A stretch of DNA of 62,014 nucleotides, filler included, from Nemertoderma westbladi (taxonomy: Eukaryota > Animalia > Xenacoelomorpha), in NCBI GenBank assembly GCA_032718475.1. It is 4 parts of 4 records of this genome, joined end to end, with 100 filler letters (N's around TTAATTAATTAA, not from the genome) between each part and the next. Parts side by side here need not be neighbours in the genome. Positions count along the whole stretch, not along the records: positions 41,755 to 53,278 come from JAUCBJ010003851.1; 3 more parts are not named here. One strand, 5' to 3'. Shown here piece by piece: positions 1,840 to 60,985 of the stretch. Under the pieces are notes generated by a model. That model was not told the DNA's origin, made no database searches, and saw only the letters and a program-made list of their open reading frames with translations. Numbering within the stretch: position 1 is the stretch's first letter; each line of letters opens with the position of its first letter. A program made the position numbers and the translations under genes.

Positions 1840-3204
1840 GCTTATGTGTACAGTTGAATGTCTACTGCTGTATTACAGTTTGAGCAAGTCTAGTAACTCA
1901 GTATTAACTGCTAGCCTAGTAATTAATTACCGGTACTGCTACTCAGTGTAGCGTGATATATATAATATATTAGAATACCGGTATGCTTATAGTATATATA
2001 ACTATTATTACAGACTAGGTTTATCACAGAATACCGGTATAATTTTAGCACAAATATATATAAATATATAATAGGCCTATCGGGAATACCGGTATACAGC
2101 TTACAGTTTGTAGTATATATAATTCTGAAATAGAATTAATTACACGTACCGGTATAATTTCAGCCTAGATTTATAGAAATAAAATAATAGGCCTATCGTA
2201 AATACCGGTATATCAATTATTTTAGAATAATTGAATTTCTGAACTTTAGAGTTACTTGGTTACTTTAACTTACTTTATTACCGTTATTTAAGCAGTAATC
2301 CAACTGATATTGAGACCTAATGGTTTTATGGTAGGCCTACTATTTATAAATCGTTAGATTTGATTTATAATGTATTTATACCCGTTTTAATGGGTTTAGT
2401 CAATGTTTGAAATAAATGTTATTATTTCTGGGGTAATCACTACACAAAGCGGTGCGCTTTTAGTGAAGTGTTACGTATAGGACACTAAAACAAATAATTC
2501 TAATTTACCTAAGTTACTTAATACTACAAATTACATACAATTCGGGTTGAGATTACAATCTCTAAATAAACACAAAAATTTACAAAAACACAAAATACGA
2601 ATTTTTAGGGTAATTTTACAAGAAGTCTACAAACCAGCCTAACAAAGGGTTAGATAACCGATTATTACACGGACAGGGTACTACGGTATTTGAAATAATA
2701 AGTAGTAGTAAATACACTGCGTTGTCTAGATAGGAAAATACCACCGCCTGACGACCTATAGCCGTATCGCTATAGGTTCTACGTTATGTATCACGGAGTG
2801 TTCCTACCTAGAAGTTAATAGAGCTAATCGAATGTGCCTATCAACCACTTTACAACACAGATATAATGCCTACACTAATTACTTCGGAAAGTACTGTACA
2901 CTAAACCCTAAATTAGGTACGAGTACTTGTATAACAGATAATCAGTAGTTAAATATACTTGAACAGCTAAAAGAACCACGGCATCTGCTGGAGTGACCGA
3001 TGCACAAAATCACCAGTCTTTACCTACGCCGAGCAGCCCGTGTAGTACCGGGGTTAATTTAACTATAGCGGTATGTATAACAAACACAATTACTGTAGGA
3101 ACAAACTTGGGGAATGAATGTTGCGAATAATCGCATAAACTCTGAATAATAAATATTACGCTACGCGTACAAACTACTCAAACAAAATGCAGACCGAACA
3201 CTGA

Positions 3205-13840: not shown

Positions 13841-13841
13841 G

Positions 13842-14312: not shown

Positions 14313-17231
14313 AAGCGATTATTAATAAAAGCAAAAGTATAACATCTTATATTAGAACTCTATACATTACATAATTACATATTATTTTGCTATGTATAGC
14401 GCCTATCTGCCTATAGTAAGCCTACAATGTATAAAGTAAAGATACAGGGACTTAAATTATTTATCAAATTATAATTATTTATTTAGGCCTATTGTTATTT
14501 ACAATACTGTTAGGCCTAGAAATAATGATTACCGGTACAATGTATTGTCAGTTTGTCAGTGCAGGATGTCTATAATGTCTTGTCAGCTTTCAGCTTGTGG
14601 GTGCCTAAGTTAAAACGTACCGGTACCGGTAGGCCTATCCGAAATGTTTTTTCTTACACTGACTGACTATAAGTAGGCCTATACTTGATACATGTTTATT
14701 TCCTTCAATTAATTTAGATTTAGACAATTAATTATAATAGCATAAACACAGATAGTATCAGTATGTTTGATTGAGGCTGGCTGATTGAGTGATTGCTAAT
14801 AGCATGCGCTAGTGGTTGCAGTCAGCCAGATCAAGTTGCGTGTACAGACAATTAATTACAATATGTAAAAAGGTAAAAGGCGTGAGAAAAAGTGGCGCCT
14901 CTACTACCAGTGAGTGTGATTCCAGATTCCCCGTACTGGCTACTGCCTGGCTTGCTGCCTACCGTATTACAGTATTACCAGACTGAGACATGGAGTGTGG
15001 AGAATGACAGAGCCAGACTGCTGTAGCGCTGTAGCCTGTAGGCAGGTAGGGTACCGGTAGGCTACTGCTGTACTGACCTACAACTGTACAACAATCACCA
15101 CACCATCACAAAATTCTGAAATACAATAAAAATAATTAGGGCCTACCGTATAACACTGTCAGATGATAGGCATTAGGCCTACCGGTGCTGGCTGACAGGT
15201 AGGCCTACCGGTGCCTCTTGCCTCTATTTCTCTACCTGCTGACCTGCAACCTGCCAAAAAAATTAAATACAAAATAATAACAACTACCGGTACAGTAACA
15301 GGCCTATTTCATTCCGGTAGAAAATTGCTGTAGGCCTATTGCTGTATTGTGAATTGTAGTCCTAGTGCATTACATCAGTCAGTAAGTACACAGTAAGCTA
15401 AGTACCGGTACCTTAAAAAAATACCCCAATGCATTGTGGGTAAAAAAATTTCCCATCATGCATTGCGCGCAAAACCATCTAATTATATTGCTGATTTAAC
15501 AATATTTATATTAGGAATACAAATGACAAAATAATGTTGTTGTTTTATATTGTATATTTATTTATATTGTGAAATATACAATATATAGTTTGTCATTTTG
15601 ACAAAACTATTCAAATAAAATATAATTAGCTATATCTTGTAACAAAATAACAATATATATAATTATAATGCCAAAATGCATTTTGTCAAAAATTTGACAA
15701 TCATGAAATTGCCAACTGCGCAATATAATTTTTAAGAGTGTGAGCGACATAACTTCATAAAGACATTACGAGTACTGTAGCCGGAAAGCTGAAAAAGATA
15801 AAATGCTTCCGATTCCGAAGCAGAAAAAGAAACCAACAGTACTGAAAACATCCCATTTGAAGATGAATTGGGGATCGTTGTAACCCTAGAGGGAGCCATA
15901 CCACCGTAGGTAACAATTGTGGAGTTTCAACTAATACTATTGAGCCGATGGAAACAGAGTTTGTGAATTAACCAGCACCCTTGTAGCTGAAGATTGTGTC
16001 GCCCTTAATATTTGTGGCGTCGTGGCGATAGTAGACCTACAGTAATATCACCATATCTGAACAAAATGTAAACGATTTTGACAACGTCTCAGAACTTGAA
16101 AATAATATACTCACATATCTATCACGGACTATAACAACTAGCATTTTAATGTAAATACATGAGCGCATAAAAACGTGTACCAAAACATGTACCAAATATG
16201 TACTAAATGTGATTAAATGTAATCAAAGTTTATAAGCCTTCACCTTCAAACATTTACCGACAGACAGACAACGGTTGAAACAGCGTTTCCCGTGTGCTAA
16301 GGTCGCTTGCTTCGTCGCTCGAACTACAGTAGCTCTTGATTTTAAGCTTGAGCAAACATTACCAAAGAAACCTTGAATCATAGAGCAACAGTTCTGGTTA
16401 GGTCAACAAACCGATATCTGTTCATTTACGGTACCCAAAAAGTTATCAGTAGGCTTACAGGGTTACTTATTTGCCAACCAATCAATGGATATAATGAATA
16501 GTCTTTCAACAATAGCCCCCACCCGCAGTAACGTTGACATTATGCTGTTATTGTAACTAAGTAATTGGTTTGCGTTTCGGCTCAGAGAATTGATACTTTC
16601 GGTGCGTCCATTAGACTAAATCACTATCACTATTGTTATTGCAGGATATCAGTTATGGGCATAACTAGATTGACCTTGTAATATTGTTGTAATATGGATC
16701 TGTATCCATCTACAGAACCACAATAATACCGTATGTTTGATTTGATTTGATTTAATTTGATTGATTATTTGTTTGATTTATATATATGAATGAAATCTTA
16801 AAAATGTAGCTAAATTTGTGCCACTGAATGTTATCGCTGTGAATAATACGATATAATACTGTAATGATGAGCACAGTTGTCTGCTGCCATTCTGTCTGGT
16901 GTTTTGTTGGTCTGTTTTTGTCGTGTCATGTCAAAACCACCATATTATATTTTTTGGTGATGACCAATTTCTAAGTGCAATGCGTTGCACTGCACTGGTT
17001 AGGGCCTTTCAAAAAACAATGATCGATTTATAGGGGGGTGGGGGGTGACGGCATCTCATCAATGAGATATACAAATGTGAGAATATCACTAAAAATAGGG
17101 GAATTCCCTTTTTGAAAAATGATGTTTATTTAATTTTCAGGTTAGACAGTACACACGTGAGTAGTAGAGCAAAATGTATCAATTGATTATGTGATGATTG
17201 ATTATCGAAGATTTTCGATCACTGCAAATAA

Positions 17232-20995: not shown

Positions 20996-21106
20996 AACTT
21001 TAACGAAGCCAGCATCTTTATTCTTTTACATAGCTGCAAGCGCGCGGTGGATAACAGGCAGTATATGGTTTCAGTTTCAGTTTCAGAGATATAACCACAA
21101 TCAGGC

Positions 21107-22197
21107 CTGTAGGCAAGATAAATATCACTTTAAATCCATATATTGAATAGCAAATTAACACCTAATTAGATCAACAATATAAATAGATAATTATTGACCT
21201 TTTTAAATATTTTATTAAATAATCTACCGGTAACATAAAATAGGGATAACATGATAATTAAACACAAGGAGCGCTCAACACACTAACCACAAATTAAGAT
21301 ACTGATAATTCAGTAATTAACGAATTAATGGCCGACTATTAATTAACTTAAAGTCTCAAACTAAGACAGCTTTTTGCAACAGGAAATTGCCTTCTGTTTT
21401 AAAATAAAACTGAATTAGAAATACAATGCGACAGTCAGACAGTTGTCTGACTGTCGCTTTGTCGGAAAGTGCCGACAGACACTCTCCGTTAAAGTAATAT
21501 CATTAATTCGTGGCATTTTTTCCACGTTTCTGCATTATTTTCTTTTATTACTGTATTATTTTGAATTTTATTAAATTTATTTTGCTCGTTCGAATTTAAA
21601 CCAGGCCTAATCCAAAATAACTCTCAGAAGAACAGTCTCACCAAGCAGCCATCCATATTTACGTGATAGGTGATATTCCAATTCAATATTTTCCAATAAC
21701 GTTTTGTTTATTTTTGTTTATGTTTACCACGTTTTCACATAGTTAAAACATCACCATGTTACTGTTTATATGTAAAAGTCAAAACCACAGAATCGCACAC
21801 GCCACTCATACTGGCGAACTACGTGCCGGTATGTTACTTTACAAACACCGCTGGGGCCTGATGGTTATAGGTAGAGAATCGACAAGAATTATGTTTACAA
21901 TAATAATATTGAAACCAAAAATCCACAAGCCAAACATATTACAGTATTATCAATAAATCAATTTGTATATAGTCCGCGGGATAAAATAGAAGCGTGAATA
22001 ATTTCGTTTTACCATGCATATCGGTAAATCAGAACATCAAATTAAAAATATTGTTCACGACATGAATTAACTGACAAATCTGTGACAATACTGCAATTCA
22101 ACAATCTGACTAATCTGAGCATATTCCCAATTGAAACTTTATTAGGTGACCAAGTGTATTGACTACCGGTATCAACATATACCCTAAATGCACTCAC
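21107..22197 (-). other. Possible 5'-UTR intron of the sclerostin-like gene
   Basis: Minus-strand donor GTGAGT at 22197, acceptor TTTATCTTGCCTACAG ending at 21107, and a minus-strand CCAAT near 22412. Prediction only. Confidence 0.3.
21428..21457. repeat. Perfect 14-bp-arm hairpin GCGACAGTCAGACA-GT-TGTCTGACTGTCGC
   Basis: Read directly; a second small hairpin TGTCGG...CCGACA follows. Confidence 0.85.
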
Positions 22198-31500: not shown

Positions 31501-31617
31501 CATAGCATCATCTAACACTGGGACCTAGGGTGCTGCTGAGTTTACATAGCATCATGCGAGACTGGGACCTAGGGTGCTGCTGAGTTTACATAGCATCATA
31601 TAAGACTGGGACCTATG
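28506..31617. repeat. Satellite, 44-bp unit GGGTGCTGCTGAGTTTACATAGCATCATCTAACACTGGGACCTA (40-bp variants), about 70 copies, running into a gap
   Basis: Period 44 (for example 28561 to 28605); variant monomers recur in a fixed order. Confidence 0.97.
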
Positions 31618-31717
31618 NNNNNNNNNNNNNNNNNNNNNNNNNNNNNNNNNNNNNNNNNNNNTTAATTAATTAANNNNNNNNNNNNNNNNNNNNNNNNNNN
31701 NNNNNNNNNNNNNNNNN
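31618..31717. other. Assembly gap spacer
   Basis: N-run, TTAATTAATTAA, N-run, 100 bp; identical spacers at 41655 and 53279. Confidence 0.95.
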
Positions 31718-39820: not shown

Positions 39821-41654
39821 ACATGACTCCCCAGTTATATCAGCCTAGGCTGAGAACACTCCCCAGTTGTCTCAGCCTAGGCTGAAAACACTCCCCAGGC
39901 TTCTCAGCCTAGGCTGAGAACACTCCCCTTAGGCTGAGATAACTCCCCTCTAGTTGCAAAAAATTGTTTGGTTGTTTCTGACTTATAAAACTCTATACAT
40001 AGGATCTAAGTTCGTTTTACCATATACATATACAGGCAGCATAATAAAGCATAATACTTTTTAGCAGTAATTTTTTAAGTCAGTTCAATTTACTTTTTTG
40101 TCCGCAAATTTTTATGAATTTTGCATAATACTTTTGTTGTCCGCAGAATGACTTTTTATGTATGCATTTCTTCAATTAAGAGAAAGGAGCAGGTTACATA
40201 GACGGTCTTTTCTAACCAAAACAATAAACGATAAAATTACCAATTGAAGGAAAGGGGCAGGTTACATAGACGGTCTTTTCTAACCAAAACAATAAACGAT
40301 AAAATTACCAATTGAGGGAAAGGGGCAGGTTACAGAGGCGAGCTTTTCTAACCAAAACAATAAGCAGTTACAATACAAAATGAAAAAAAGAGCAGGTAAC
40401 ATACCAATTGAGGGAAAGGAGCTCCTTTTTTCTTCTTCCTCGGGACCAATTTTGTTTGTTTAGAGGCCCTATTTTTTCTATTTCGGGGGGGTGGGGGGGG
40501 GGGGGGGGGGGGGGGCGCAGACCCTAACGCCGGCACTGCGTGTTCATTCCAGCCCGGTAATGTAAAATTTGCATTCGCATGGTCATTTGACCCACCGGCT
40601 TGCGGCAAAAGTCCAGCGGCTTCATTTAATGCATTAACAATATCATTAGCATACTCATCAATATTAGATATATGTAAGGGGTTTAGATACAAAACATTAC
40701 TGCTGAATTACAATGCAAATTAAGACTACTTAACCGGTTACTCAATGTCTGCTTAAATAAATCCTGCTGATCACTGTTAGCACGAGAGAAATTCGGTTTC
40801 GCCCGAACATTTCTCGGAACCGTGTTATCAACACGTAAATTAACATTAAACTTAAAATATACCGGGCTATGGTCTGAAAGGTTGGCACCGGAATGGACAA
40901 CGCCGGCCTCAAAACTCGCATCTAAAACGGTATCTGAGACCAAAAAATGCTCCAATGTCGATATTGAGATAGTATTATCAGTCTCATATAAATACGTGTA
41001 ATCAACATCATACTTATCCCATGCCACATTTAAATTATAATCTCGAACTAAGTTACGCAGCATATTTACATGTGCTGTTTGGGGTGCAAAGTCCGCATTG
41101 AAGTCTCCCGTTAAAATTACATTACTTGTATCTGAGACTCTAATAATGTCTGTAATATCATTGCACATAGTTAGAAATTCATCGGAAACCGTATCAACAT
41201 GCTTTGTATCAACAGGAAAATAACAGTTAAACAGAAGCTTATCCCTACAATTTGGGAATGAAAGTTTAATAGCTTGAAACCGCCTATTATTAGTTTCTAT
41301 ATTAATCATGTATTTTGATATCGATTTCCGAATTAAAAAGCACAAACCTGCAATTGGCCTACCGGTTTGACCAGTTGCATTGTTATCAGCATAATAAGCG
41401 GGTAGAGAATGACAATTAAAATCCTGCTTAAACCACCGTTTTAAGTAATTTGCATTATCCTTAAGTACAAAGTGTTCTTGAATACAGAAAATATCAGCAC
41501 TGGTAGCTAAAAACTTAGCGAATTCAGCTTTATCGCTGGAGAAACCTCTGCTGTTATAAGATATAATATAAAACTTACTACCATTTTGGGATTGACCAGA
41601 GTCCAACGCCATTGTGCAAGTTTTGGTTTACCGAGCGGGTCCATAGGCATCTTC

Positions 41655-41754
41655 NNNNNNNNNNNNNNNNNNNNNNNNNNNNNNNNNNNNNNNNNNNNTT
41701 AATTAATTAANNNNNNNNNNNNNNNNNNNNNNNNNNNNNNNNNNNNNNNNNNNN
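41655..41754. other. Assembly gap spacer
   Basis: N-run, TTAATTAATTAA, N-run. Confidence 0.95.
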
Positions 41755-41996
41755 GGAATAAACTGCATCGGATAAATCAGATCCCTATCAAATTGAAAGT
41801 AATCAAATATAGGAGTTAAAAAATAAAAAAATATAAAAAAAAATAAATTGGTACGATATTGTTATTATATGCAACTACCGTTTGCACTGGGATCTATCAC
41901 TACTGTGTTATATACCTACCGGTATCGTTATGTTGTTCTCTCTGCATGTGATTACTGTTATTCTGTAGTCATGTTATTATCAGAATATTATACGAA

Positions 41997-42830
41997 TTAC
42001 TGAAATAACAGTGCCGACTTGTCGACAAAATTGCGCCGCCACAACACCCTATCACCCATGACATTTGCGAGATCACCCGCACCCTCAAGGCCAGTTTCCT
42101 TTAAGATGCGTCTCAAGAAAGTCATGGGCTGTCCACCATGCTTATTCAATCCATAAGGCTGCCAAAACACAAGATTATGAACTGGCTGGTCCTCACAGCA
42201 AAAGCAATGTCCTGCAAAGAGGAGGCGATTTTGTTCTAGTGTCAAGCTTGGGGGAACCAATGAGACACCTCCAATGTTATATAGTGTCTGGTTGGAGATG
42301 TGTGCATTGTACTTGACATAATGAACCCGGCGTAGCATTCTTGTGAATGTGCAATCCAGAGATTTGGTGTCCTCAGCAGTTAGAGCCCAGCATGGACTCC
42401 CATAGAGTAGTACTGGAACTACTGCTGCTCTAAATAATCGGACCTGAAGTTTCCGATTAATTCTCGGTGACTTCCAAATCCTGGAAAGCCTATTCAAGGC
42501 TGTCCATGCCTTTCCCTTACGTATTCGAAGGTCCTCACCTGACTTCCGGATCCATGATCCCAGGTAACAGAAGTCGTCCACATGCTCCAGCATACCATCC
42601 TTTGAGCTTATGCTCATCCGATCAGAGACTTGTTGAGGATTTTCAAAGTTAACTGTCAAAATTTTGGTCTTTCTGGAGTTAATAAAAAGTCAACACTAGA
42701 AGCAGCAAGTTCAAATGAGCTGAGGAGCCACTGGGCTCCCTCTAGTGATTCTGAGAGTACTCCTAAGTCATCAGCAAAGTCTAGATCAGTTAGGTACTTG
42801 GCAGGATTTCTTCGTATAATCGTATCGTTC
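41997..42830 (-). pseudogene. 5'-truncated RTE LINE (RT motif C through C-terminus)
   Basis: YLTDLDFADDL, DDFCYLGSW, LFRAAVVPVLLYG, RLLFAGHC. Confidence 0.85.
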
Positions 42831-42911
42831 TAGTATTCCATGGGTGCAGGTTACAGTGGCACATTGCAAGGTATTATAACCGAAACAAAAAATGAAACTT
42901 ATTACTACACG

Positions 42912-43328
42912 TACGTGGGGACTTTGCGTAGAGGTGCAATTAGTGGACCTAGTCATTCGCCCCCTAGCGGCAGACAGATGAACTATAAAAGTCTGTCTCG
43001 GAGGATAATTTCTTTATTCAGCAATGCCCGCAGGTCACTCCTACCAAATTTCAGATGGATCTTACAGTATGGTTGGTTCTATAATTACAGCTACTTTTAC
43101 GTTTCTGTCAATTGGACCCCTAGCGCCAGACAGATGAACTACAGAAGTCTGTCTCTCTGTACAATTTCTAAACTTTTCATATATTACATGTGTCCAAGTT
43201 TGGTTCTATTTCATCAAACATTGACCTACTTATTAGGTATTAGCGTTCAAACATTTACAACAACCACGACAACGACGGCGCATCCATTACGCTAAAGGCT
43301 CACCTGGACTTACATGGCTCGCCCCACA
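42912..43328 (+). mobile_element. DINE-1/Helentron-like element with CCCTAGCGG monomers
   Basis: 5' GTGGGG end, two monomers, ACG/ACA microsatellite and 3' GGCTC...GGCTCGCCCCAC; same layout as 47699-48968. Confidence 0.6.
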
Positions 43329-43329
43329 G

Positions 43330-43642
43330 GCTACTGTTATATTTTGGAAGTAATCAGCTGTCATTGGCGTCAAAATTCCCCTGGAGAGGGATGAATTTAT
43401 AATGCGTCGAAAGTCCCCCCCCCCCCCCCCCCCCCCCCCTCCTCTATCAGAAGTACTGTACCTAACTGATCTAGACTTTGCTGATGACTTAGTTATCTCA
43501 ATATCACTAGAGGGAGCCCAACGGCTCCTCGGCTCATTAGAACAGGCTGCTTCTAGTGTTGGTCTTTTGTTGACTCCAAAAAGGCCAAAATCTTGACAGT
43601 TAACTTTGGAAGTCCTCAGCAAATCTCTGATCGGTTTAGCAT
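43330..43642 (+). pseudogene. RTE RT fragment in inverted orientation relative to 42615-42810
   Basis: YLTDLDFADDL..SLEGAQRLLGSLEQAASSVGL; a diverged reverse complement of the neighbouring copy. Confidence 0.8.
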
Positions 43643-44107
43643 CTCAATGTGCAGTTTCAATGCAGCAGGCCGATTATGGTATACTGTAGTAGTCTATCAG
43701 GGGAATCCCTTACAAGCGCATATGTGGGTGGATACGGATACGGCGAAAAGTTAAACACATTACATAATTTTCGAGTTTAATAGCTCAAAGCTGCAAAATG
43801 ACCGCAAACACAAAATAATTGAAAAATTCTATGACAAATTTACGGTGGCTGAATCAGGCCAAATAAAACCAATTTTCTTAGTCATAAAATCATATAAATC
43901 CACTTTTCTTAGTCGCGGAAAAATCATATAAAACTACTTTTTATGTACCGTGCGAGTTTTAAAAAACATGTAAAACCACTTTTCTCAGTCGAATAAAAAT
44001 CATATAAAACCATTTTTATGTACCGTGGGAGTTTTAAAAAACATATAAAACCACTTTTCTCAGTTGAATAAAAATCATATAGGCCTAAAACCATTTTTCC
44101 AGGTCTA

Positions 44108-45306
44108 TTAAATATCATATAAAACCATTTTTCCAGTCCTATTCACTTTATTATTATCCATAACTATAGCTCGAGGTATAGCACCAACCCCAATTATCGG
44201 TAGCAGGACATACGTAATTTTTTCAATAAAGATATCTGAATCTAATCCTGATACAGCATGGATCTTGAAAATTTTCAGGTTGCCCATAAACTGTACTGTG
44301 CCGCCTGTATACTGGAAGCCTGGTTTTACAAATACCTCGTCGGCAACCACAACAACTTCCTTTTTTCCCGCTTCCAGGCAATTTAATTGTAATGTTAAGA
44401 ATTCTGTGTCACTCAATTTATTGGTATCACTGGTATAACGTTGCAGCTGTCTTATAGATGGCAATGCCATAACACCCACAAGTTCAACATAAACTGAGCG
44501 AGATTTCGTAAATACATGAAATCCCAAAAGTTACATCCTCAAGTGAAAATGGATCGCAAACTGGTTTATTCAAGTTAGAAATCTGTTGAGATATGAATGT
44601 GCATTTTAATTCAGTTTTTCCAATTGGTGTAAAGTTAATTACATGTTTGATAATATTTTCCAATTCTGACCAACAAGTAAAAGTTTTGTGTTTTATAAAC
44701 GGCAGACAACTCCATTGCATGATTATAGCAAGTTATAGTGTGCTTGGAATTATTTATTCCACGGGTAATAAATATGCTAAACTTGTAAACTGAACCCTCC
44801 CGAGTTTTAGATCTCAAAACGATTTCATCGTCCAGTTCCTGAATAGAAAACAGTTCCGTAAAATTGCATTGTTCTTTTAACAATCGATTATATATGTCAC
44901 TGTAAATAAGCGCATCTTGTTCCAAGAATGCTTCCAGTTCATCGGGTATTAAGTTTCGAACTGAAGGAAGAGCGACTGCGGCAGATTCACGAGGAGGAGC
45001 GTTTGGAGATGGCAAACAAGAAGACGGTACCGATTCGAATATGCTGGGTGCGATGATGGGAACATGGGCACCACCTCGAACCACCCTCGTTGCATAACCC
45101 AGAGGCCAGTGTTTCTCACAGATACGTTTATTTTTAGTGAATTCAAACCCAGCATTTGGCAAAACCCGAATCCATGCACTTCGCTCCACTTCATCGTTTG
45201 GGAAGCTAAACACCTTCACTGCGGGTACCGGTACTTCCGACTTTAGGCGAGGCCTATCATCGTTTGAATTGCATCCAAAGACGCAGCGTTTATAGGCCTA
45301 AGGCAT
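44108..45306 (-). pseudogene. THAP-domain P-element transposase, N-terminal part, disrupted
   Basis: THAP: MP(Y)KRCVFGC...VFSFP...W...P...RICEKHW...APSIF. Core start: LPSIRQLQR...VVVADEVFVKPGFQYTGG...AIVMDNNKVN. Frameshifts, and truncated before the rest of the catalytic domain. Confidence 0.85.
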
Positions 45307-46289
45307 CTATTAAGTTGTTAAGGAATTATTACTGGTAAATAAGCAATTAAAAACAATAGACTTGTTGCCAAGCAAATACGTATGATAACAGGCCTAACAG
45401 CCTAATTAAAAAGATCATTTAGATTTTAGACTTATTGCTTTATTGCAGTATTGATTAGTGCTGTAGTGCAAAACCATGTCACAGGCGGTCGCGGTCGTCA
45501 CCCTCTTCCGAAGGAACACAATAAGAGTGGCAGGGGAGGGGACACAGGTATTGTATACTGTATACAGGTATATGCCTACCGGTAATACAGTACTACAGGT
45601 ATAAGATACAACACTACAGCACTACAACAATACTACCAGACCTACAGTGTTTACTGCCTGACAGTGTAAGTCCAACAAGTCAGGCAACGCTAATTCCGCA
45701 GCAAAGTCCTTGTCATGGCCTGTGTGTAGTGCGCCCAGCCCAATAACTGAATACTGGAATAAGCCTATGTCATTCCATCCATAGCACATGCAGACATGGC
45801 AGCATGGTGCCATCAGTGGTAGGCACATTTTGTCTTCAATTTCAACTGTTCAATTTCAATCCGGGATAGGCCCGGGCCTTTAATTTCGGAAGTTCACCTT
45901 TCGATATCGTTATATAGCAAAAGCAAAAAACCCAACACAGCAACACCAAAGGTCACCATAAAATGTTTAAGGTTGATCAGTATTTATTCATGAATGTGGG
46001 TGATATGATAGGCCTAATGATAATACAGTATGCCGTAGCCGTGGGGTGTTGGGGTGCAGCCAGTGGTCTGCTGTAGCAAAGCTAGTATAGATTTCCACTG
46101 GTGCATGACTGTGAAAGGTTTAGTGTACTGATTAGGAGAGGGGGGTGGGGGTGGGGGGGGGGGGGGGGGGGGTTACTCGATAGATTCGAAAGGAGATAAT
46201 TTAGGTGCTCGGAATGTAAAAAGCATGTTTATGAAATAGTTGCTAGCTAGTGGGACCCTTCAGGAATATACTGCACATTGGATATATTG

Positions 46290-46640
46290 GAGATGTTTTA
46301 TTGTATATAAGTCAAACATAGATAAATACAGTATAGGTCTAACTAGAGTATGGACAGTATGCCTAATGTCGCAAAGTGGATACTTTATTTGTGGAATCTT
46401 TACCAGCTTCAAGACAAGGCATCGAGAAAACGTTTTTTTAATTTATTTGCTAGGGCATTTTTAGATAGTGAGTTTTTAAGTTCTAAGGGTAAATCATTCC
46501 AAATTTTAGGTCCTGTATATTTTATAGAATTTTGGGAAAGTTGTAAGCGGACACGAGGGACAAAGAACTTTTGTGTAGAAGCAGAGCGCGTGGAATATTT
46601 GTGTATTGTACTTGTGTGACGGAATATTTTTTGCATGGTT
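46290..46640 (-). mobile_element. 3' fragment of a CR1/L2(Crack)-group LINE inserted in the P element
   Basis: HKYSTRS...SIKYTGPKIWNDLPLELK...KLKKRFL, a typical L2/Crack ORF2 C-terminus. Confidence 0.7.
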
Positions 46641-47462
46641 TCAGTTTTCTTATGTTTGTTAATGTCGTAATGGAAAAGTGACAGAGAAAATCGGTTTTGT
46701 ATGATTTTTGTGGTTTATATATTATATGATTTTTATTCGACTGAGAAAAGTCAGAAAGTGGTTTTATATGATTTTACTCGACCGAGAAAAGTGGTTTTAT
46801 ATGTTTTTTAAAACTCGCACAGAACATAAAAGTGGTTTTATATGATTTTAAGTCGACTAAGAAAAGTGGTTATATATAATATTTAATGGACCTTGAAAAA
46901 TGGTTTTATATAATTTTTAAAACTCGCACAGTACATAAAAGTATTTTATATGATTTTTCCACGTCTAAGAAAAGTGGTTTTATATGATTTTATGACTAAG
47001 AAAATTGGTTTTATTTGGCCTGATTCAGCCACCGTACAAATTTGTTTAATTTAATTAAAAACATTATGGGAAAGGAGCAGGTTACAGTGGGTTTGTTTTC
47101 TAACCAAAACAATAAACTCTTTACATTATTTCAGTTGCGGTCAATTTGCGCTGAAAATCACTATTTTCACGTGATGTTAACGTGCGCCAGTATCTGTAAT
47201 TTCCTAATTGGCATAGTCTTTACAGTCTTACTTGGTTACGGTACAGTACTTCGGTAGTCGCAAAGTGGTCTGTCAGTTCGCCCTGTTTCAGTAGGCTTTA
47301 CAGTATTATTGTCAGATTGTTATTTAATGCGATACTGATTTATTGTTACCCCACCCAGTTAGACCGAATTCATGTAAATGCTGATAGATATATTAAAAGA
47401 TGATAGAAAAAATAAAGTATTGAGGGTCTTTAGCTGGTTATATTATATTAGATAAAGATACA

Positions 47463-47502
47463 ATAGTAAACGTTTTCGACCTACCGGTCTGCATCAGACT
47501 AT
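47463..47502 (-). ncRNA. Minimal type I hammerhead ribozyme-like motif (inverted pLTR copy)
   Basis: Minus strand: ATAGT CTGATG CA GACC-GGTA-GGTC GAAA ACGT TT ACTAT; stem I ATAGT/ACTAT, stem II GACC/GGTC, palindromic stem III AAACGTTT. Confidence 0.7.
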
Positions 47503-47698
47503 GTACTGGCAACTAACAGGAAAAGGTAACTTTGCCGCTTTGCTAACGACCTTCTAGAACCCGCGGTCACTCGCCTGGAGTCTAACTTGAAAGGGACAGA
47601 CGACTTACTTACGACTTAAGGGGTTATCAGCCCTCCCTAGAGATATTGGACCCGACTGCACTCTGATTTCACTGGACGTAGTAGACATGTACACTAAC

Positions 47699-48968
47699 AC
47701 GAAGTGGGGCCTTCGCGCAGCACGTGAAATGAGTTAATGCTAAGTATCAACTCGAAAGGATTATAAAAACATAGGAGAAGATTTTCCCGGAAAACGTTAA
47801 CCCTCTAGCGGGAGACTGGGTAACTGAAGAAGGAAGGATTAGTTTCCCTACAAAGCCACAGCCTATGGTCTATTACATATCTACCAAGTTTCCGATTGAC
47901 GGATCATAAATAACGAAATGTTGGAAGGTTTTCACTTTCATACATTTAGCCCTCTAGCGGCATATTAAAGAACTACGGATCGATCACCTTCCTCACAAAG
48001 ACGAGGCATGTGGTCTAGTACATACCGGTACTGTATATTCCAAAATTCAGCTTAAATAGATTAAGATCAAGGAATTCGCAAAGGTTATCACTTTCCTACA
48101 TTTCGCCCTCTAGCGGCAGACTCGAAAACTCCGGACCGATTACTGTCCACACAAAGACTTAGGATGTCTTCTAGTACATATATGACAAGTTTCAGCGTAA
48201 TCAGATCATAAACAACTAAATGGAAGAATAATTTCACATTCGGGACATTTCGCCCTCTAGCGGCAGACTGGAGAACTGCAGACAGATTAGCCTCCTTTGA
48301 AATTTACAGCTAATGGTCTAGTACATACTTCCCAAGTTTCAGCTTAAACGGATTAAAAGCAAAGAAATGGGTGGCCATTTAATGTTTAGACATGTGGCCC
48401 TCTAGCGGGAGACTGGAAAACTTCGGACCGATTACAATCCACACAAAGACTCAGGATGTCATCTAGTACATATATGACAAGTTTCAGCGTAATCAGATCA
48501 TAAACAACTAAATGGAAGAATAATTTCACATTCGGGACATTTCGCCCTCTAGCGGCAGACTGGAGAACTGCAGACAGATTAGCCTCCTTTGAAATTTACA
48601 GCTAATGGTCTAGTACATACTTCCCAAGTTTCAGCTTAAACGGATTAAAAGCAAAGAAATGGGTGGCCATTTAATGTTTAGACATGTGGCCCTCTAGCGG
48701 GAGACCATTGCACTGATGGTGTCTGAAAGTCTCTCAAAAATCTCAACTTTTGCTTATATTGATACCTACAAATTTTCAACTTGGCAGCTTTAAATCCGAC
48801 AAAGTTATTAGCATGTCAAAATCGTAACGACGACGACAACGACGACGACGACAACGACGACGACGACAACGACGACGACGACGACGACGACAACTATTTG
48901 CATAAATTGACCCACCCCCTAACAGTGTCAATTCGCTAAGGCTCCGCCAACTTCGTGGCTCGCCCCAC
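47699..48968 (+). mobile_element. DINE-1/Helentron-like element with seven ~146-bp monomers, inserted in the Penelope RT
   Basis: It splits MYTN|ITHDVGCRAL. GTGGGGC 5' and GCCCCAC 3' ends; CCCTCTAGCGG at about 47800, 47949, 48105, 48252, 48397, 48544 and 48689; (ACG/ACA)n at 48826-48893. Confidence 0.75.
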
Positions 48969-49253
48969 ATTACCCATGATGTAGGATGTAGGGCACTACG
49001 ACAAGCACTCTCCGAGGACACGCACTTCACACAACAAACACTCATCTCATTAGATAACTTTATACTACTCGTCCGATTTATACTTGAACATAACTACTTC
49101 ACTTTTGATAACACACTATACCTTCAATTACGAGGCGCAGCCATGGGTAGCAGTTTCTCGAAAAACTACGCTAGCCTAACCATATCTAGATTAGAGATAC
49201 ACTTCCTCCACATCCTGAACAACCCCATTAATAACTACCTAAACGCGAGTGTA

Positions 49254-49540
49254 TCAAACAGATTTTCTTCGGCCGCTAGGCCAGGGATTACGCACAAAGT
49301 CTGACGACTTATTTCCAGTGCGGTCCCCCCAGAAATTTACTCCCCAGAGGAAACTCCAGTACTCATTTAGCTACCACTTAAGGATGCAAGGCAGAGATGC
49401 GCCCTGGCTGGTCCCTTTAAAGCATTCGTGCCGAAACGAAAACTGCCCTGGCCCATGTGAGGATCGAACCCACGACCTACAGGAGATGTGAATTCAATGC
49501 AACCACTACACCAAGGTGGAACCTTGGTGTAGTGTGTAGT
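49254..49540 (-). mobile_element. tRNA-derived SINE inserted in the Penelope RT
   Basis: Minus strand A box TGGTGTAGTGG and B box GGTTCGATCC; central GCCTTGCATCCTT...TAAATGAGTAC block (Meta/Sauria-like by recall); 3' GGACCGCACTGGAAATAAG resembling an L2/Crack tail. Confidence 0.75.
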
Positions 49541-49550
49541 AGGTGTAGTA

Positions 49551-50075
49551 ACTACCATAACTACCCATGTAACTAATACAACCACCCATGAAACTAACAT
49601 AACTACCCCCAAAACTACCCTAACTACCCATGAAACTAACATAACTACTCCTGACATTAACATAACTACCCCTGGAACTAACATAACTACCCCTGGAACT
49701 AACAGAACTACCCCTGAAACTACCATAAGTACCCATGAAACTAACATAACTACCCCTGGAACTACCTTAAGTACCCATGAAACTAACATAACTACCCCTG
49801 AAACTAACGAAACTAACATAACTACCCCTGAAACTACCATAAGTACCCATGAAACTAACAAAACTACCCCTGATACTAACGAAACTAACATAACTACCCC
49901 TGAAACTACCATAAGTACCCATGGTACTAACATAAATACCCCTGAAACTAACGAAACTAACATAACTACCCCTGAAACTACCATAAGTACCCATGGTACT
50001 AACATAAATACCCCTGAAACTAACAAAACTAACATAACTACCCCTGGCACTAATATAACTACCCCGGAACCTACC
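49551..50075. repeat. Codon-phased 21-bp-based repeat ACTACCCCTGAAACTAACATA
   Basis: Unit variants are multiples of 3 nt and encode TTPETNI/STHETNI. Confidence 0.9.
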
Positions 50076-51395
50076 CCTTCCACCCCATTCTGTAATAATA
50101 TAACTACCTCAGTAACTTATAAAACTAAACTAGCACCAAACACTACACCTAACCCCGTTTTCTCAGATCCAATAATAACGACCCCAATATCTAACCTTAC
50201 ACCTCCTGATTCCAACATCAATATTCCAGAAACTATCCTATCTATCTCAGATCCTAATATAACCATAACTAACGAAACTACCTCAACCTCGGATCCAAAC
50301 ATAACCCCCCCAGACGATAATACAACTTACCCTATTCCATTCTACAAACGGTTTGTTGACGACAGCTATGGTATAGTACAACGTGTATTAAGTGAACAGG
50401 ACATTCACAACATACAGAAAATCACAATCTCCTCTTGTAACGACTTATTCCAAAACTCTGATATACAATTCACCATTGAATACTCCCACACATCACTCCC
50501 ATTCCTTGACGTCTTGACACAGATTAACAACGAAACACTAACAACTACATTATACAAAAAACCAACTAGCAATAAACTCCCGATTCACTACAATAGCTTC
50601 CATGATAAGAAATTACTACTATCCGTAATTCGTAGCCAACTCCTACGCATCCACCGCAGATGTAGCGAGTCTAACGACTATACCAAACTCAGAGACGAAT
50701 TCCTTGGCGAATGTCTACTCAGGCAGTACCCCCAGAACCTCCTTAACAAACTTAGACAATGGACTCCCCAAACTAGACCTAAAGACACCAACTCGAAACC
50801 CACATTTTACTTATCCACCAACCAACAGATGAAGGGCGTGTTCCAAAATACTGTACGTAGATACTCCAAAAACTACGACCTTGACATCAACATTAATGTA
50901 GTCACGAAGAATCCCACATCACTAGGACAAATACTAACCAAAAATAAAACTCAATTGCAAACACACACAAATAACACCACTAATGAGCCATGTAACTCTA
51001 GCCGCTGCCTTACATGCAAAACTATCACTGACATACAACAGACCCCATGGGGTGAAAAGATAAAAGGACACTATACATGTAAGTCCCACACTGTATGTTA
51101 CTTGGCCTGGTGCCACTGCCACCCTACTCTATACTACATAGGCCAAACGAGACAGAAACTTCACGAACGCTTTAATGGACACCGCAACAACATACGACAC
51201 TACCCCTCACGAGCCAATGACGGAAAAACACACGAAGACATACTCCTAGCTAGGCACATATACGGTTGTGGTTTAGAAAATCTACGCACCGCAACTATAA
51301 AACAATTCACAAACATACCCGAACTACTAGCGACGGAAGCTAACCTAATCTATACATACAACCCCCCACTTAACGTAGCAAGACCAGCCATCTAA
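49551..51395 (+). CDS. Open 3' part of the Penelope ORF: Thr/Pro-rich insert, RT motifs C-E and thumb, Cys linker, GIY-YIG endonuclease
   Basis: The frame of ORF 50514-51395 reads open upstream through FVDD (50352) and the TTPETNI repeats to 49551; RT motif B' at 49080-49250 is in the same frame. Confidence 0.8.
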   Translation, partial: TTITTHVTNTTTHETNITTPKTTLTTHETNITTPDINITTPGTNITTPGTNRTTPETTISTHETNITTPGTTLSTHETNITTPETNETNITTPETTISTHETNKTTPDTNETNITTPETTISTHGTNINTPETNETNITTPETTISTHGTNINTPETNKTNITTPGTNITTPEPTPSTPFCNNITTSVTYKTKLAPNTTPNPVFSDPIITTPISNLTPPDSNINIPETILSISDPNITITNETTSTSDPNITPPDDNTTYPIPFYKRFVDDSYGIVQRVLSEQDIHNIQKITISSCNDLFQNSDIQFTIEYSHTSLPFLDVLTQINNETLTTTLYKKPTSNKLPIHYNSFHDKKLLLSVIRSQLLRIHRRCSESNDYTKLRDEFLGECLLRQYPQNLLNKLRQWTPQTRPKDTNSKPTFYLSTNQQMKGVFQNTVRRYSKNYDLDININVVTKNPTSLGQILTKNKTQLQTHTNNTTNEPCNSSRCLTCKTITDIQQTPWGEKIKGHYTCKSHTVCYLAWCHCHPTLYYIGQTRQKLHERFNGHRNNIRHYPSRANDGKTHEDILLARHIYGCGLENLRTATIKQFTNIPELLATEANLIYTYNPPLNVARPAI

Positions 51396-51923
51396 ACCCA
51401 ACGTTTTATATATTATACCCTATATTCTATATCTTACACAACTACAGTGCCCTCTATAGCGAATTTCAGGGTTTTTATGTGCTTTTCCCCTATCTTCTTT
51501 TTTGTTTTTGTCTTCGGTTTTTCTGTTTCTTGTAATTTTCTTACTCTGTAAAAATTCCCCGGCAATATGTAGACAGTTATCACTATGCTGTATTCTACCT
51601 AACCATACGCTTTAAGTAGATAGCTCATAATCCTATGTAACCTACCTTATCCAACTATACCATTCAGTATGTAGACACATGACCACTCCTGGGATTTCCC
51701 TATCAACTTCTCCCAACCTTGTAACCCAACCTGTAACCCTATATTTGTACTTTAGATTGACAGCTCACAACTAACTCGGTGAATTTTCCCTATCACAATT
51801 ACCTTACAGTTATACAGTACATACATAACGTTAACCTTTCTGGGATTCACCTATCAGGTATTCCCCTTTAAAACTTATATATATATATATAGACCCCCAC
51901 CTTTTCCTGTTAGTTGCCAGTAC

Positions 51924-51963
51924 ATAGTCTGATGCAGACCGGTAGGTCGAAAATGTTTACTAT
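51924..51963 (+). ncRNA. Minimal type I hammerhead ribozyme-like motif in the 3' pLTR
   Basis: ATAGT CTGATG CA GACC GGTA GGTC GAAA ATGT TT ACTAT; one substitution in stem III relative to the 5' copy. Confidence 0.7.
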
Positions 51964-52507
51964 TGTATCTTTATTTAATAAAATATAACCAGCTAAAGGA
52001 CCCTCAATACTTTATATTTTTTTATCATCTTTACACTATGCTGCCGCTGGTGAATGCCTACCACTTCATCCGTTCGTTTAATACATCCTGTACATACAAT
52101 ACAGCAAAATAGTGCTATATATACTAATACCGGTACTGATAGCCAGAGAGAACAGCAGTAGAGAAACCGGTAGCATGGAACCTAACATTAGACTTTTGGA
52201 GGACATAAAAAATAAAAAAAAAAAAGGACAAAAAAAGGATTTAAACGGACAATAACAATTATTGCGGTTATTTAATGCGATACTGATTTATTGTTACCCC
52301 ACCCAGTTAGACCGAATTCATGTAAATGCTGAAAGATATATTGACATCCAAGGTTCCACGTCCAACCTCCTAGCTCCTAACTTGGACTTGTAAATAGCGA
52401 TTTCTTCACTTTGAATAGTGCCGATGGGTAAATGCTGTAGAAAACATTCTTAACTGGATTATAAAGTTACAATTTAATGTAACCGTATAGGGTGGCTGAC
52501 TTGTAGT

Positions 52508-52515
52508 TGACGTCA
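52508..52515. promoter_or_regulatory. CRE/ATF palindrome TGACGTCA upstream of the BRCT exon
   Basis: Exact consensus about 80-110 bp before the candidate ATGs (52593 and 52621). Confidence 0.4.
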
Positions 52516-52620
52516 CAATACACTACTACAGTACTATATTACCGCTACCGGTATTGGTATACTGGTATAGGCCTAGCGAACTATTCGCTTACGATGACAA
52601 TAATTACGACTACCGGTACT

Positions 52621-52935: not shown

Positions 52936-53278
52936 GTTTGTATATTATTGCACAGTATTAATTATGGGACAGGGGGAAACCGGACGCAAACCCATCTCGG
53001 CAAATTAATTAATATTTCGTCTAAATGTTAAATTACCAATATAGGGAAAGGAGCAGGTTACTCTTTCTAAAACAAAACAATAAACTAAAGACAATAGAAA
53101 AATAGAAAAGGTTAGGCCTACAGTTTTATTTTATTGAGTATTCATCTGTAGTTTGGGTTGATTTCCCCTGGAGACGGATGAATTTTGTCCCTGACCCCGA
53201 AATATATTATGACGAGCGAGCAAAGGCAATAAAGGGTCATAAGGGAAAAGGGGAATTTTTTTTTAACATATTAATAAA

Positions 53279-53378
53279 NNNNNNNNNNNNNNNNNNNNNN
53301 NNNNNNNNNNNNNNNNNNNNNNTTAATTAATTAANNNNNNNNNNNNNNNNNNNNNNNNNNNNNNNNNNNNNNNNNNNN
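53279..53378. other. Assembly gap spacer
   Basis: N-run, TTAATTAATTAA, N-run. Confidence 0.95.
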
Positions 53379-53781: not shown

Positions 53782-56700
53782 TCTAAACCTTGGGTAAAAT
53801 TTGGGTTAACAAACTGTCTAAACCTTGGGTAAAATTTGAGTTGTCCTTAACAAACTGTCTAAACCTTGGGTAAAATTTGGGTTGTCCTTAACAAACTGTC
53901 TAAACCTTGGGTAAAATTTGGGTTGTCCTTAACAAACTTTTTAAACCTTGGGGAAAATTTGGGTTGTCCTTAACAAATTGTCTAAACCTTGGGTAAAATT
54001 TGGGTTGTCTTTAACAAACTGTCTAAACCTTGGGTAAAATTTGAGTTTTCCTTAACAAACTGTCTAAACCTTGGGTAAAATTTGGGTTGTCCTTAACAAA
54101 CTGTCTAAACCTTGGGTAAAATTTGGGTTGTCTTTAACAAACTGTCTAAACCTTGGGTAAAATTTGGGTTGTCCTTAACAAACTTTTTAAACCTTGGGGA
54201 AAATTTGGGTTGTCCTTAACAAATTGTCTAAACCTTGGGTAAAATTTGGGTTGTCTTTAACAAACTGTCTAAACCTTGGGTAAAATTTGGGTTGTCTTTA
54301 ACAAACTGTCTAAACCTTGGGTAAAATTTGAGTTGTCCTTAACAAACTGTCTAAACCTAGGGGAAATTTTGGGTTGTCCTTAACAAACTGTCTAAACCTA
54401 GGGTAAAATTTGGGTTGTCCTTAACAAACTGTCTAAACCTTGGGTAAAATTTGGGTTGTCCTTAACAAACTGTCTAAACCTTGGGTAAAATTTGGGTTGT
54501 CCTTAACAAACTGTGTAAACCTAGGGGAAATTTTGGGTTGTCCTTAACAAATTGTCTAAACCTTGGGTAAAATTTGGGTTGTCCTTAACAAACTGTCTAA
54601 ACCTAGGGTAAAATTTGGGTTGTCCTTAACAAACTGTCTAAACCTAGGGTAAAATTTGGGTTGTCCTTAACAAACTGTCTAAACCTTGGGTAAAATTTGG
54701 GTTGTCCTAAACAAACTGTCTAAACCTTGGGTAAAATTTGGGTTGTCCTTAACAAACTGTGTAAACCTGGGGGAAATTTTGGGTTGTCCTTAACAAATTG
54801 TCTAAACCTTGGGTAAAATTTGGGTTGTCCTTAACAAACTGTCTAAACCTTGGGTAAAATTTGGGTTGTCCTTAACAAACTGTCTAAACCTTGGGTAAAA
54901 TTTGAGTTGTCCTTAACAAACTGTCTAAACCTAGGGTAAAATTTGGGTTGTCCTTAACAAACTGTCTAAACCTTGGGTAAAATTTGGGTTGTCTTTAACA
55001 AACTGTCTAAACCTTTGGTAAAATTTGGGTTGTCCTTAACAAACTGTCTAAACCTAGGGTAAAATTTGAGTTGTCCTTAACAAACTGTCTAAACCTTGGG
55101 TAAAATTTGAGTTGTCCTTAACAAACTGTCTAAACCTAGGGTAAAATTTGGGTTGTCCTTAACAAACTTTTTAAACCTTGGGGAAAATTTGGGTTGTCCT
55201 TAACAAACTTTTTAAACCTTGGGGAAAATTTGGGTTGTCCTTAACAAATTGTCTAAACCTAGGGTAAAATTTGGGTTGTCCTTAACAAACTGTCTAAACC
55301 TTGGGTAAAATTTGAGTTGTCCTTAACAAACTGTCTAAACCTAGGGTAAAATTTGGGTTGTCCTTAACAAACTGTCTAAACCTTGGGTAAAATTTGGGTT
55401 GTCTTTAACAAACTGTCTAAACCTTTGGTAAAATTTGGGTTGTCCTTAACAAACTGTCTAAACCTAGGGTAAAATTTGAGTTGTCCTTAACAAACTGTCT
55501 AAACCTTGGGTAAAATTTGAGTTGTCCTTAACAAACTGTCTAAACCTAGGGTAAAATTTGGGTTGTCCTTAACAAACTTTTTAAACCTTGGGGAAAATTT
55601 GGGTTATCCTTAACAAACTTTTTAAACCTTGGGGAAAATTTGGGTTGTCCTTAACAAATTGTCTAAACCTAGGGTAAAATTTGGGTTGTCCTTAACAAAC
55701 TGTCTAAACCTTGGGTAAAATTTGGGTTGTCTTTAACAAACTGTCTAAACCTTTGGTAAAATTTGGGTTGTCCTTAACAAACTGTCTAAACCTAGGGTAA
55801 AATTTGAGTTGTCCTTAACAAACTGTCTAAACCTTGGGTAAAATTTGAGTTGTCCTTAACAAACTGTCTAAACCTAGGGTAAAATTTGGGTTGTCCTTAA
55901 CAAACTTTTTAAACCTTGGGGAAAATTTGGGTTATCCTTAACAAACTTTTTAAACCTTGGGGAAAATTTGGGTTGTCCTTAACAAATTGTCTAAACCTAG
56001 GGTAAAATTTGGGTTGTCCTTAACAAACTGTCTAAACCTTGGGTAAAATTTGGGTTGTCCTTAACAAACTGTCTAAACCTTGGGTAAAATTTGGGTTGTC
56101 CTTAACAAACTGTCTAAACCTTGGGTAAAATTTGGGTTGTCCTTAACAAACTGTCTAAACCTTGGGTAAAATTTGGGTTGTCCTTAACAAACTGTCTAAA
56201 CCTTGGGTAAAATTTGGGTTGTCCTTAACAAACTGTCTAAACCTTGGGTAAAATTTGGGTTGTCCTTAACAAACTGTCTAAACCTAGGGTAAAATTTGGG
56301 TTGTCCTTAACAAACTGTCTAAACCTTGGGTAAAATTTGGGTTGTCCTTAACAAACTGTCTAAACCTTGGGTAAAATTTGGGTTGTCCTTAACAAACTGT
56401 CTAAACCTTGGGTAAAATTTGGGTTGTCCTTAACAAACTGTCTAAACCTTGGGTAAAATTTGGGTTGTCCTTAACAAACTGTCTAAACCTTGGGTAAAAT
56501 TTGGGTTGTCCTTAACAAACTGTCTAAACCTTGGGTAAAATTTGGGTTGTCCTTAACAAACTGTCTAAACCTTGGGTAAAATTTGGGTTGTCCTTAACAA
56601 ACTGTCTAAACCTTGGGTAAAATTTGGGTTGTCCTTAACAAACTGTCTAAACCTTGGGTAAAATTTGGGTTGTCCTTAACAAATTGTCTAAACCTAGGGT

Positions 56701-59700: not shown

Positions 59701-60985
59701 GGGTTGTCCTTAACAAACTGTCTAAACCTAGGGGAAATTTTGGGTTGTCCTTAACAAACTGTCTAAACCTAGGGTAAATTTTGGGTTGTCCTTAACAAAC
59801 TGTCTAAACCTTGGGTAAAATTTGGGTTGTCCATAACAAACTGTGTAAACCTAGGGGAAATTTTGGGTTGTCCTTAACAAACTGTCTAAACCTTGGGTAA
59901 AATTTGGGTTGTCCTTAACAAACTGTCTAAACCTAGGGGAAATTTTGGGTTGTCCTTAACAAAATGTCTAAACCTTGGGTAAAATTTGGGTTGTCCTTAA
60001 CAAACTGTCTAAACCTTGGGTAAAATTTGGGTTGTCCTTAACAAATTGTCTAAATCTAGGGTAAAATTTGGGTTGTCCTTAACAAACTGTCTAAACCTTG
60101 GGTAAAATTTGGGTTGTCCTTAACAAACTGTCTAAACCTTGGGTAAAATTTGGGTTGTCCTTAACAAACTGTCTAAACCTAGGGGAAATTTTGGGTTGTC
60201 CTTAACAAACTGTCTAAACCTTGGATAAAATTTGGGTTGTCCTTAACAAACTGTCTAAACCTAGGGGAAATTTTGGGTTGTCCTTAATAAACTGTCTAAA
60301 CCTTGGGTAAAATTTGGGTTGTCCATAACAAACTGTGTAAACCTAGGGGAAATTTTGGGTTGTCCTTAACAAACTGTCTAAACCTTGGATAAAATTTGGG
60401 TTGTCCTTAACAAACTGTCTAAACCTAGGGGAAATTTTGGGTTGTCCTTAACAAGCTGTCTAAAGCTTGGGTAAAATTTGGGTTGTCCTTAACAAACTGT
60501 CTAAACCTAGGGGAAATTTTGGGTTGTCCTTAACAAACTGTCTAAACCTTGGATAAAATTTGGGTTGTCCTTAACAAACTGTCTAAACCTAGTGGAAATT
60601 TTGGGTTGTCCTTAACAAACTGTCTAAACCTTGGGGAAATTTTGGGTTGTCCTTAACAAACTGTCTAAACCTTGGGTAAAATTTGGGTTGTCCATAACAA
60701 ACTGTGTAAACCTAGGGGAAATTTTGGGTTGTCCTTAACAAACTGTCTAAACCTTGGGTAAAATTTGGGTTGTCCAAAAACAAACTGACTAAACCTTGGG
60801 TAAAATTTGGGTTGTCCTTAACAAACTGTGTAAACATAGGGGAAATTTTGGGTTGTCCTTAACAAACTGTCTAAACCTTTGGTAAAATTTGGGTTGTCCT
60901 TAACAAACTGTCTAAACCTTTGGTAAAATTTGGGTTGTCCTTAACAAACTGTCTAAACCTAGGGTAAAATTTGGGTTGTCCTTAA
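53782..60985. repeat. Satellite, 41-bp unit AAACCTTGGGTAAAATTTGGGTTGTCCTTAACAAACTGTCT, about 175 copies
   Basis: Period 41 (56041 to 56082); homogeneous centre with higher-order variant blocks; resumes at 61992-62014. Confidence 0.98.

Follow-up and report, generated by a model that had tools for sequence, protein, structure and literature searches.

Palindromic micro-insertions at TA dinucleotides in a stretch of Nemertoderma westbladi DNA are probably excision footprints of several transposon families

Introduction

Which process has placed the same short words, each consisting of a few bases between two TA dinucleotides, again and again in one stretch of an animal genome? We address this question for a 62,014-nt stretch of Nemertoderma westbladi DNA (assembly GCA_032718475.1; hereafter the window), which is rich in repeats and contains pieces of RTE- and Penelope-type retroelements, satellites and a DAN/sclerostin-like open reading frame (ORF). 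The words are TA-GGCC-TA (TAGGCCTA), TA-CCGG-TA (TACCGGTA) and TA-CAG-TA or TA-CTG-TA (together TAC(A/T)GTA), and several of them lie in the remnant of a THAP-domain DNA transposon. A first-pass annotation had interpreted them as micro-insertions at TA resembling excision footprints, and every motif that it listed is found at the position it gave.

Transposases of the IS630-Tc1-mariner type duplicate TA on insertion and, on exit, cut one strand 2–4 nt inside each end of the element. The host then joins the two 3' overhangs, which are made of the element's first bases. We conclude that the words in the window are probably end-joining footprints (‘scars’) of several TA-inserting cut-and-paste transposon families (IS630-Tc1-mariner/pogo), which were later excised in the germ line.

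Results

The words are enriched far beyond chance

All word counts refer to the window rather than to the whole N. westbladi genome, and enrichment was counted on the 47,489 bases remaining once tandem arrays had been masked. Expectations were derived from an order-3 Markov model and, additionally, from 40 local dinucleotide shuffles. Under the Markov model, TACCGGTA was observed 22 times with 0.88 expected, TAGGCCTA 20 times with 1.22 expected and TACAGTA/TACTGTA 38 times with 12.75 expected; the shuffles gave means of 0.6, 0.48 and 9.7 and maxima of 2, 2 and 21, respectively. TACCGGTA and TAGGCCTA rank first and second among the 256 eight-base palindromes and, behind poly-C only, are the top two of the 20,973 8-mers seen. 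The enrichment over a Markov background that had been anticipated for these motifs is thus borne out within the window.

Part of the word count consists of scars copied by tandem duplication and by a repeat family. When sites with similar flanks were collapsed, 18 of the 22 TACCGGTA, 19 of the 20 TAGGCCTA and 33 of the 38 TAC(A/T)GTA sites remained, still far above expectation. The cores of the words do not duplicate their flanking bases. Next to the TA of CCGG sites, T is scarce (4 of 39 sides against 30.5%, p = 0.003), which fits a purine-TA-pyrimidine target.

Comparison with empty sites identifies insertions at TA

Copies for comparison were taken from the contigs of four sequencing runs, X1 to X4. 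X1 and X3 are recorded as the same sample, X1 may be the window's own source run, and X4 comes from a different sample and year. Two further runs, X6 and X7, stem from other organisms and have almost no words in common with the window. Near-identical copies are merged in these contigs, so that alleles and paralogues are not separable; for reference, low-copy DNA has a depth of about 10–30 in the runs.

At 45293..45300, TA-GGCC-TA forms a 6-nt insertion that reads as a stop at the third codon of the THAP frame, which runs on the minus strand from an ATG at 45306-45304. As the first-pass annotation had proposed from the reading frame, a form without the insertion exists: the X2 and X3 contigs, compared over 45160-45438, lack exactly these 6 nt, with 4 and 6 further differences over some 273 nt, and the 6 nt are present in the X1 and X4 contigs. 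A profile-free HMMER search returned 483 matches; 150 relatives were listed, and 30 of these could be parsed by the spacing pattern. In 28 of these 30, the initial Met and the first Cys are spaced by four residues, as in the scar-free frame, and the long form at 45293 is therefore an insertion. When longer proteins were searched from word seeds of the THAP region, none of 161 candidates matched. The THAP frame is broken at other places also, and this scar therefore need not be what disabled the gene.

The same element holds a further GGCC site, TA-GGCC-TA at 44080..44087, in a subrepeat of its left inverted repeat. Already suspected as an insertion by comparison with a sister subrepeat, the 6-nt addition is found in 1 of the 12 subrepeats listed, and the X2 and X3 contigs are shorter by these 6 nt. 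The long forms at 45293 and 44080 are derived; the motif at 44080 is absent from the other 11 of 12 subrepeats.

A chained double scar, TA-CCGG-TA-CTG-TA, occupies 48023..48035 in one monomer of an array with a period of about 147 bp. This monomer is 11 nt longer than five sister monomers and two distant ones, leaving 7 of the 8 monomers motif-free. The additional 11 nt had been noted in the first pass, and the spacing stands. Contigs spanning the site with 0–1 differences reach a depth of 5286 in X2 and 464 in X4, and this high depth of unchanged contigs means that the double motif belongs to a family, not to one copy. The founder acquired it, and the family multiplied afterwards. Around this site, contigs of all four runs join across the 1270 nt of 47696-48967, showing that the element composed of ~147-bp monomers was inserted into a repeat that also occurs on its own.

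Taken together, the GGCC class and, by comparison with sister monomers, the CCGG+CTG double scar are insertions at TA with doubling of the TA. The micro-insertion interpretation therefore holds for TA doubling at 45293, 44080 and 48023; no matching donor element is present in the window. One of the proposed comparisons was dropped: TACTGTA at 43454..43460 had been contrasted with a sister RTE copy, but in this copy just 3 bases on the 5' side of the motif match before homology ends, placing the word at the homology edge of a truncated RTE-type fragment.

TA-CCGG-TA at 45226..45233 lies in frame within a variable THAP loop, and the motif is present in all four listed spanning contigs. This loop measures 9–28 residues across relatives, and its length gives no support to the gain of two codons. 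At 45226, 45293 and 45577, no joint or loose end marking an element still inserted was listed in the contigs of the four runs, which drop rare variants. In a contig alignment over 41760-49500, high-copy repeats predominated; the 12 of its 141 indels that were listed include none of the four sites proposed as controls. In variant copies of 45160-45700, 2 of the 10 motifs are certainly missing, and another gap of 8 nt is likely, against 11–15 substitutions; the rough rate for this hotspot, from very few events, is one scar per 5–8 substitutions.

A fourth scar class shares hotspots with two of the others

A scan for any k bases, a core and the same k bases identified a fourth class, in which CAG or CTG stands between two copies of the same five bases. 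This arrangement occurs 27 times, compared to 1.6 in 15 shuffles, and just 4 of the 38 TAC(A/T)GTA words belong to it. Shorter copies are available for two sites with a CAG core: the 8-nt insertion at 45612..45624 is missing in X2 and X3, and that at 46747..46759, which lies in a right-hand inverted-repeat subrepeat of the THAP element, corresponds to an 8-nt gap in sister subrepeats.

The classes are not spread evenly. Of the 27 five-base scars, 22 have a GGCC or CCGG word no more than 300 nt away (circular-shift mean 5.8, p = 0.0003), and 12 of 19 GGCC words have a CCGG word in the same range (shift mean 2.5, p = 0.002). TAC(A/T)GTA words are not co-clustered (10 of 33, shift mean 7.4, p = 0.17). 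Five hotspots hold 55 of the 69 GGCC, CCGG and five-base words, and four of them lie just 5' of an ORF start, a link that was drawn post hoc. By comparison, 19 chosen long ORFs, which contain 934 of the 4490 TA dinucleotides, hold 2 of 42 GGCC/CCGG words and none of the 27 five-base scars. We consider it likely that the hotspots mark gene starts.

The densest hotspot (14402..15410) holds 20 GGCC, CCGG and five-base scars, including a triple chain at 14618-14637. The hotspot at 1928..2339, with nine words, lies upstream of a minus-strand coiled-coil ORF and was partly copied by a tandem duplication of about 115 bp. Six scars at 21225..22171 lie upstream of the DAN/sclerostin-like ORF, a single minus-strand frame at 20444-21025 for a secreted protein. 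A further six, at 52128..52618, directly precede a plus-strand ORF at 52620, which has no Pfam match and which we take to be BRCT-like. Upstream of the THAP start, the hotspot at 45393..46016 comprises ten scars of the five-base CAG/CTG class together with TACCGGTA at 45577 and TAGGCCTA at 46009.

A proposed route from element ends to scar cores

Each core may be derived from the ends of a departed element. CAG ends would give TA-CAG-TA or TA-CTG-TA, as in the textbook case. For elements of the Passer/pogo type with CCG ends, two CCG overhangs could pair via their terminal CG and be filled in, giving TA-CCGG-TA; such pairing and fill-in would explain why shorter cores are lacking. Elements with GG ends may give TA-GGCC-TA by a like route or by retention of two bases per end. 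GGC ends would permit the same pairing and GGG ends would need two-plus-two joining; three sites with a five-base core would fit either. By analogy with Tc1, retention of two bases per end should also yield TAGGTA/TACCTA, a surplus of which is not seen. The fourth class would require a further enzyme that combines CAG ends with a 5-bp target duplication.

Every scar would create a new TA, and scars could in this way form chains. They would be expected to accumulate where insertion is easy and tolerated, presumably in open DNA at gene starts, and to multiply when the DNA that carries them is duplicated, as the tandem copies at 1928-2339 and the repeat family at 48023 suggest. Judged by sequence, the core appears to equal the ends of a known TA-targeting family for CAG/CTG and to be compatible with such ends for CCGG.

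A search of the window for the TA-flanked inverted-repeat families with matching ends that had been predicted gave one real element. It is a 906-bp non-coding fold-back element at 26029-26934, whose inverted arms are long, whose ends read CAC...GTG and which is flanked by TA on either side; cores of the kind its ends would leave are not enriched, and it is not the donor of the enriched ones. Searching the window for single ends of the Passer or pogo type yielded chance-like matches only.

Known systems resemble the scar classes in part

Tc1/mariner footprints consist of the first or last 2–4 bases of the element between two TAs, and Sleeping Beauty leaves TACAGTA or TACTGTA (PMC6943129), that is, the identical 7-base words with TA doubled around element end bases. 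Those footprints come from cells and somatic tissue, whereas the words in the window are inherited and have built up to about 25 more than background over 47 kb, with no donor seen.

For TACCGGTA, a candidate donor is Passer. In the 23 of 150 places listed from supplement 3 of PMC7386202, Passer elements of the pogo superfamily have CCGTA ends and a TA duplication and range from sponges to fish. They leave footprints of 0–4 bp and favor promoters and 5' gene ends, whereas Sleeping Beauty inserts nearly at random (PMC9976928). The likeness to Passer (PS, DD35D) includes CCG ends, TA duplication and footprints of at most 4 bp, and may extend to the target AAGTACTT and the preference for promoters and 5' gene ends. 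Clustered CCGG and GGCC words on the one hand, and unclustered CAG/CTG words on the other, match this difference between Passer and Sleeping Beauty. No Passer copy is present in the window.

For the GGCC class, several families with partly suitable ends or duplications were considered. Zator elements have a 3-bp TWA duplication. Neither Zator nor a TAA-duplicating Fot fits as the donor: the empty sites differ by 6 nt and not 7, and the bases flanking TA vary freely. Sailor duplicates TATA (PMC8533490). The ISL2EU group of PHIS, found in animals only, has GG ends and a 2-bp duplication, of AT in A|AT|T (PMC4482050); it resembles the GGCC class in its ends and duplication length but is ruled out as donor, as the duplication in the window is TA and ATGGCCAT is absent (0 observed, 0.8 expected). 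Among the rows listed from PMC7386202, GG-ended pogo elements are fungal, algal, oomycete or amoebal. Fot and Fot-like elements thus share GG ends and superfamily with the presumed donor, and at least one, from Entamoeba, has a TA duplication; they differ in being non-animal and in mostly duplicating TAA/TAAA.

A rare footprint of Caenorhabditis elegans Tc1, TA-CATG-TA, has the same two-plus-two structure as TA-GGCC-TA and TA-CCGG-TA (bioRxiv 10.1101/2025.10.09.681459; PMC3520976). In Tc1, however, the two-base core dominates, whereas in the window the four-base core occurs alone, and TACATGTA is not enriched (1 observed, 1.6 expected). PMC9179366 and PMC12730594 added nothing decisive on the footprint question. 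The literature searched, which did not extend to subscription journals or reports in repeat databases, contained no account of such footprints occurring naturally in large numbers; TAGGCCTA as a whole word was likewise not found there.

Other elements of the window

The THAP element that hosts several of the scars (43842..47035, minus strand) is a DNA transposon remnant with long inverted repeats, bounded by 8-bp direct repeats at 43834-43841 and 47036-47043. It is probably P-like. P elements begin with CA; this element starts with ACGG, and an alternative reading of its ends is TA-CGG...CCG-TA. Internal stretches of 131 and 85 nt are deleted in other copies of the element, and other genomic copies of the inverted-repeat subrepeat at 44115-44140 bear a TACAGTA-containing insertion that is absent from the window.

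Inverted arms of 132 bp (47396-47527 and 51899-52032) and a 76-bp direct duplication (47319-47394 and 52267-52342) flank an element with an ORF at 49533-51395, which has a threonine-rich repeat front and no Pfam match; we take this element to be Penelope-like. At 12717-14312, the C-terminal parts of two opposite-strand ORFs without Pfam match meet near 13810, and resemble a CACTA-type transposase and its partner gene. In every run, both edges of a very high-copy unit of about 50 bp at 47068-47117 (also 40173-40403 and 53022-53109) are marked by hundreds of loose ends. Two satellites, one of 44 bp (72 copies, 28508-31615) and one of 41 bp (176 copies, 53782-60985), contain none of the four scar classes. 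Three 100-letter N spacers with a central TTAATTAATTAA (31618-31717, 41655-41754 and 53279-53378) are not biology.

Discussion

The chemistry invoked here is textbook; what is new is the scale, the co-occurrence of four scar classes and the hotspots common to three of them. For two of the classes, independent runs also supply empty sites. Several observations weigh against attributing the words to excised transposons. By-products with shorter cores are absent: TAG(G/C)CTA (6 observed, 5.5 expected), TAC(C/G)GTA (6 and 5.0) and TAGGTA/TACCTA (25 and 30.8) show no enrichment in the window, so that neither two- nor three-base cores derivable from GG/CC ends display the expected spectrum, and TAGGCCCTA/TAGGGCCTA (3 observed, 0.25 expected) is the sole by-product-type word above expectation. 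For comparison, Tc1, with its short overhang, leaves a two-base core in 78% of cases (bioRxiv 10.1101/2025.10.09.681459), and most natural excisions in rice are imprecise, with 8 of 94 perfect (PMC4423477). No TA-flanked element with CCG, GG or CAG ends is present in the window, and no GG-ended animal element appears among the rows listed from supplement 3 of PMC7386202 (7 of 99 GGG places). No empty site was seen for a lone CCGG word, that at 45226 being present in all four listed spanning contigs, and a clean one for a lone CAG/CTG word was not seen in the window either. The excess of G next to CCGG sites is non-significant once chains are left out (p = 0.10), chaining itself is weak (5 adjacent pairs against 1.4 expected globally or 2.7 locally), and no adjoining ORF start was found for the densest hotspot.

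Other explanations have to account for the same insertions. Perfect palindromes that cluster upstream of ORF starts and are scarce within ORFs would suit transcription-factor binding sites that selection has maintained or added in promoters, and for TACATGTA in Phytophthora a binding site was preferred over a Tc1 footprint (PMC3520976). We regard this as very improbable for the words in the window, which arise as whole 6-nt, TA-doubling insertions that fall within repeats of a transposon and, in one case, create a stop in a coding frame; furthermore, a single binding word cannot account for the five-base class, whose arms vary and which clusters with the palindromes. A host process may be envisaged instead, in which a polymerase or a hairpin-opening route writes a fixed palindromic filler at TA breaks or nicks in open DNA, independently of any transposon. 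One such process could explain why three classes share hotspots, why the cores are uniform with few by-products and why no donor was found. Hairpin opening and slippage copy flanking bases, however, and the cores in the window do not, for which reason slippage and hairpin fill were rejected; the cores moreover equal the known transposon ends CAG and CCG, and we know of no fixed-filler repair pathway. This route is improbable, if slightly less so than binding sites.

The direction of change might also be the reverse, with long forms ancestral, or copied from few founders, short forms arising by deletion between two TAs and the enrichment produced by repeat families. Copying is real in places: the double motif at 48023 sits in a high-copy family, the cluster at 1928-2339 is partly a tandem duplication, and most scars at 45160-45700 are common to all copies seen. 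As a general account it has very little chance of being correct, given 18–19 sites per class with unrelated flanks, 11 of 12 inverted-repeat subrepeats and 7 of 8 monomers free of the motif, and a long form at 45293 that introduces a stop and lacks the spacing found in 28 of 30 relatives. AGGCCT and ACCGGT, contained in the words, are restriction-enzyme sites, a circumstance that could point to an artefact of assembly or library preparation. Independent runs refute this for the sites at 44931-45700 and 48023: a single 798-nt X4 contig, ungapped and with just one difference, bears each of the 10 motifs at 44931-45700, and the 48023 motif is present in both X2 and X4. Across the window, the chance of an artefact is close to nil.

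Excision of several TA-inserting families remains the reading that we favor. A bolder extension of it, which we put forward tentatively and would not expect to hold in full, is that four or more types of transposase, one of them undescribed (duplicating 5 bp of target and cutting 3 nt inside the ends, as Sleeping Beauty does), repeatedly visited the same few promoter-like regions. Scar gain there might then rival point mutation and be a main route of regulatory-sequence turnover in this animal, and scar density might be a fossil map of germ-line-open DNA.

If the words are excision footprints, each scar class would predict the ends and the cut geometry of an enzyme; for GG ends on TA in animals and for CAG ends with a 5-bp duplication, no described family was matched. 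Cut-and-paste traffic would have been far above what surviving copies suggest. The commonest non-satellite 8-letter words of the window would count past transposon visits rather than protein-binding motifs, which bears on the discovery of promoter motifs in invertebrates. Finally, hotspots common to unrelated enzymes could reveal, from sequence alone, which DNA is open in the germ line.

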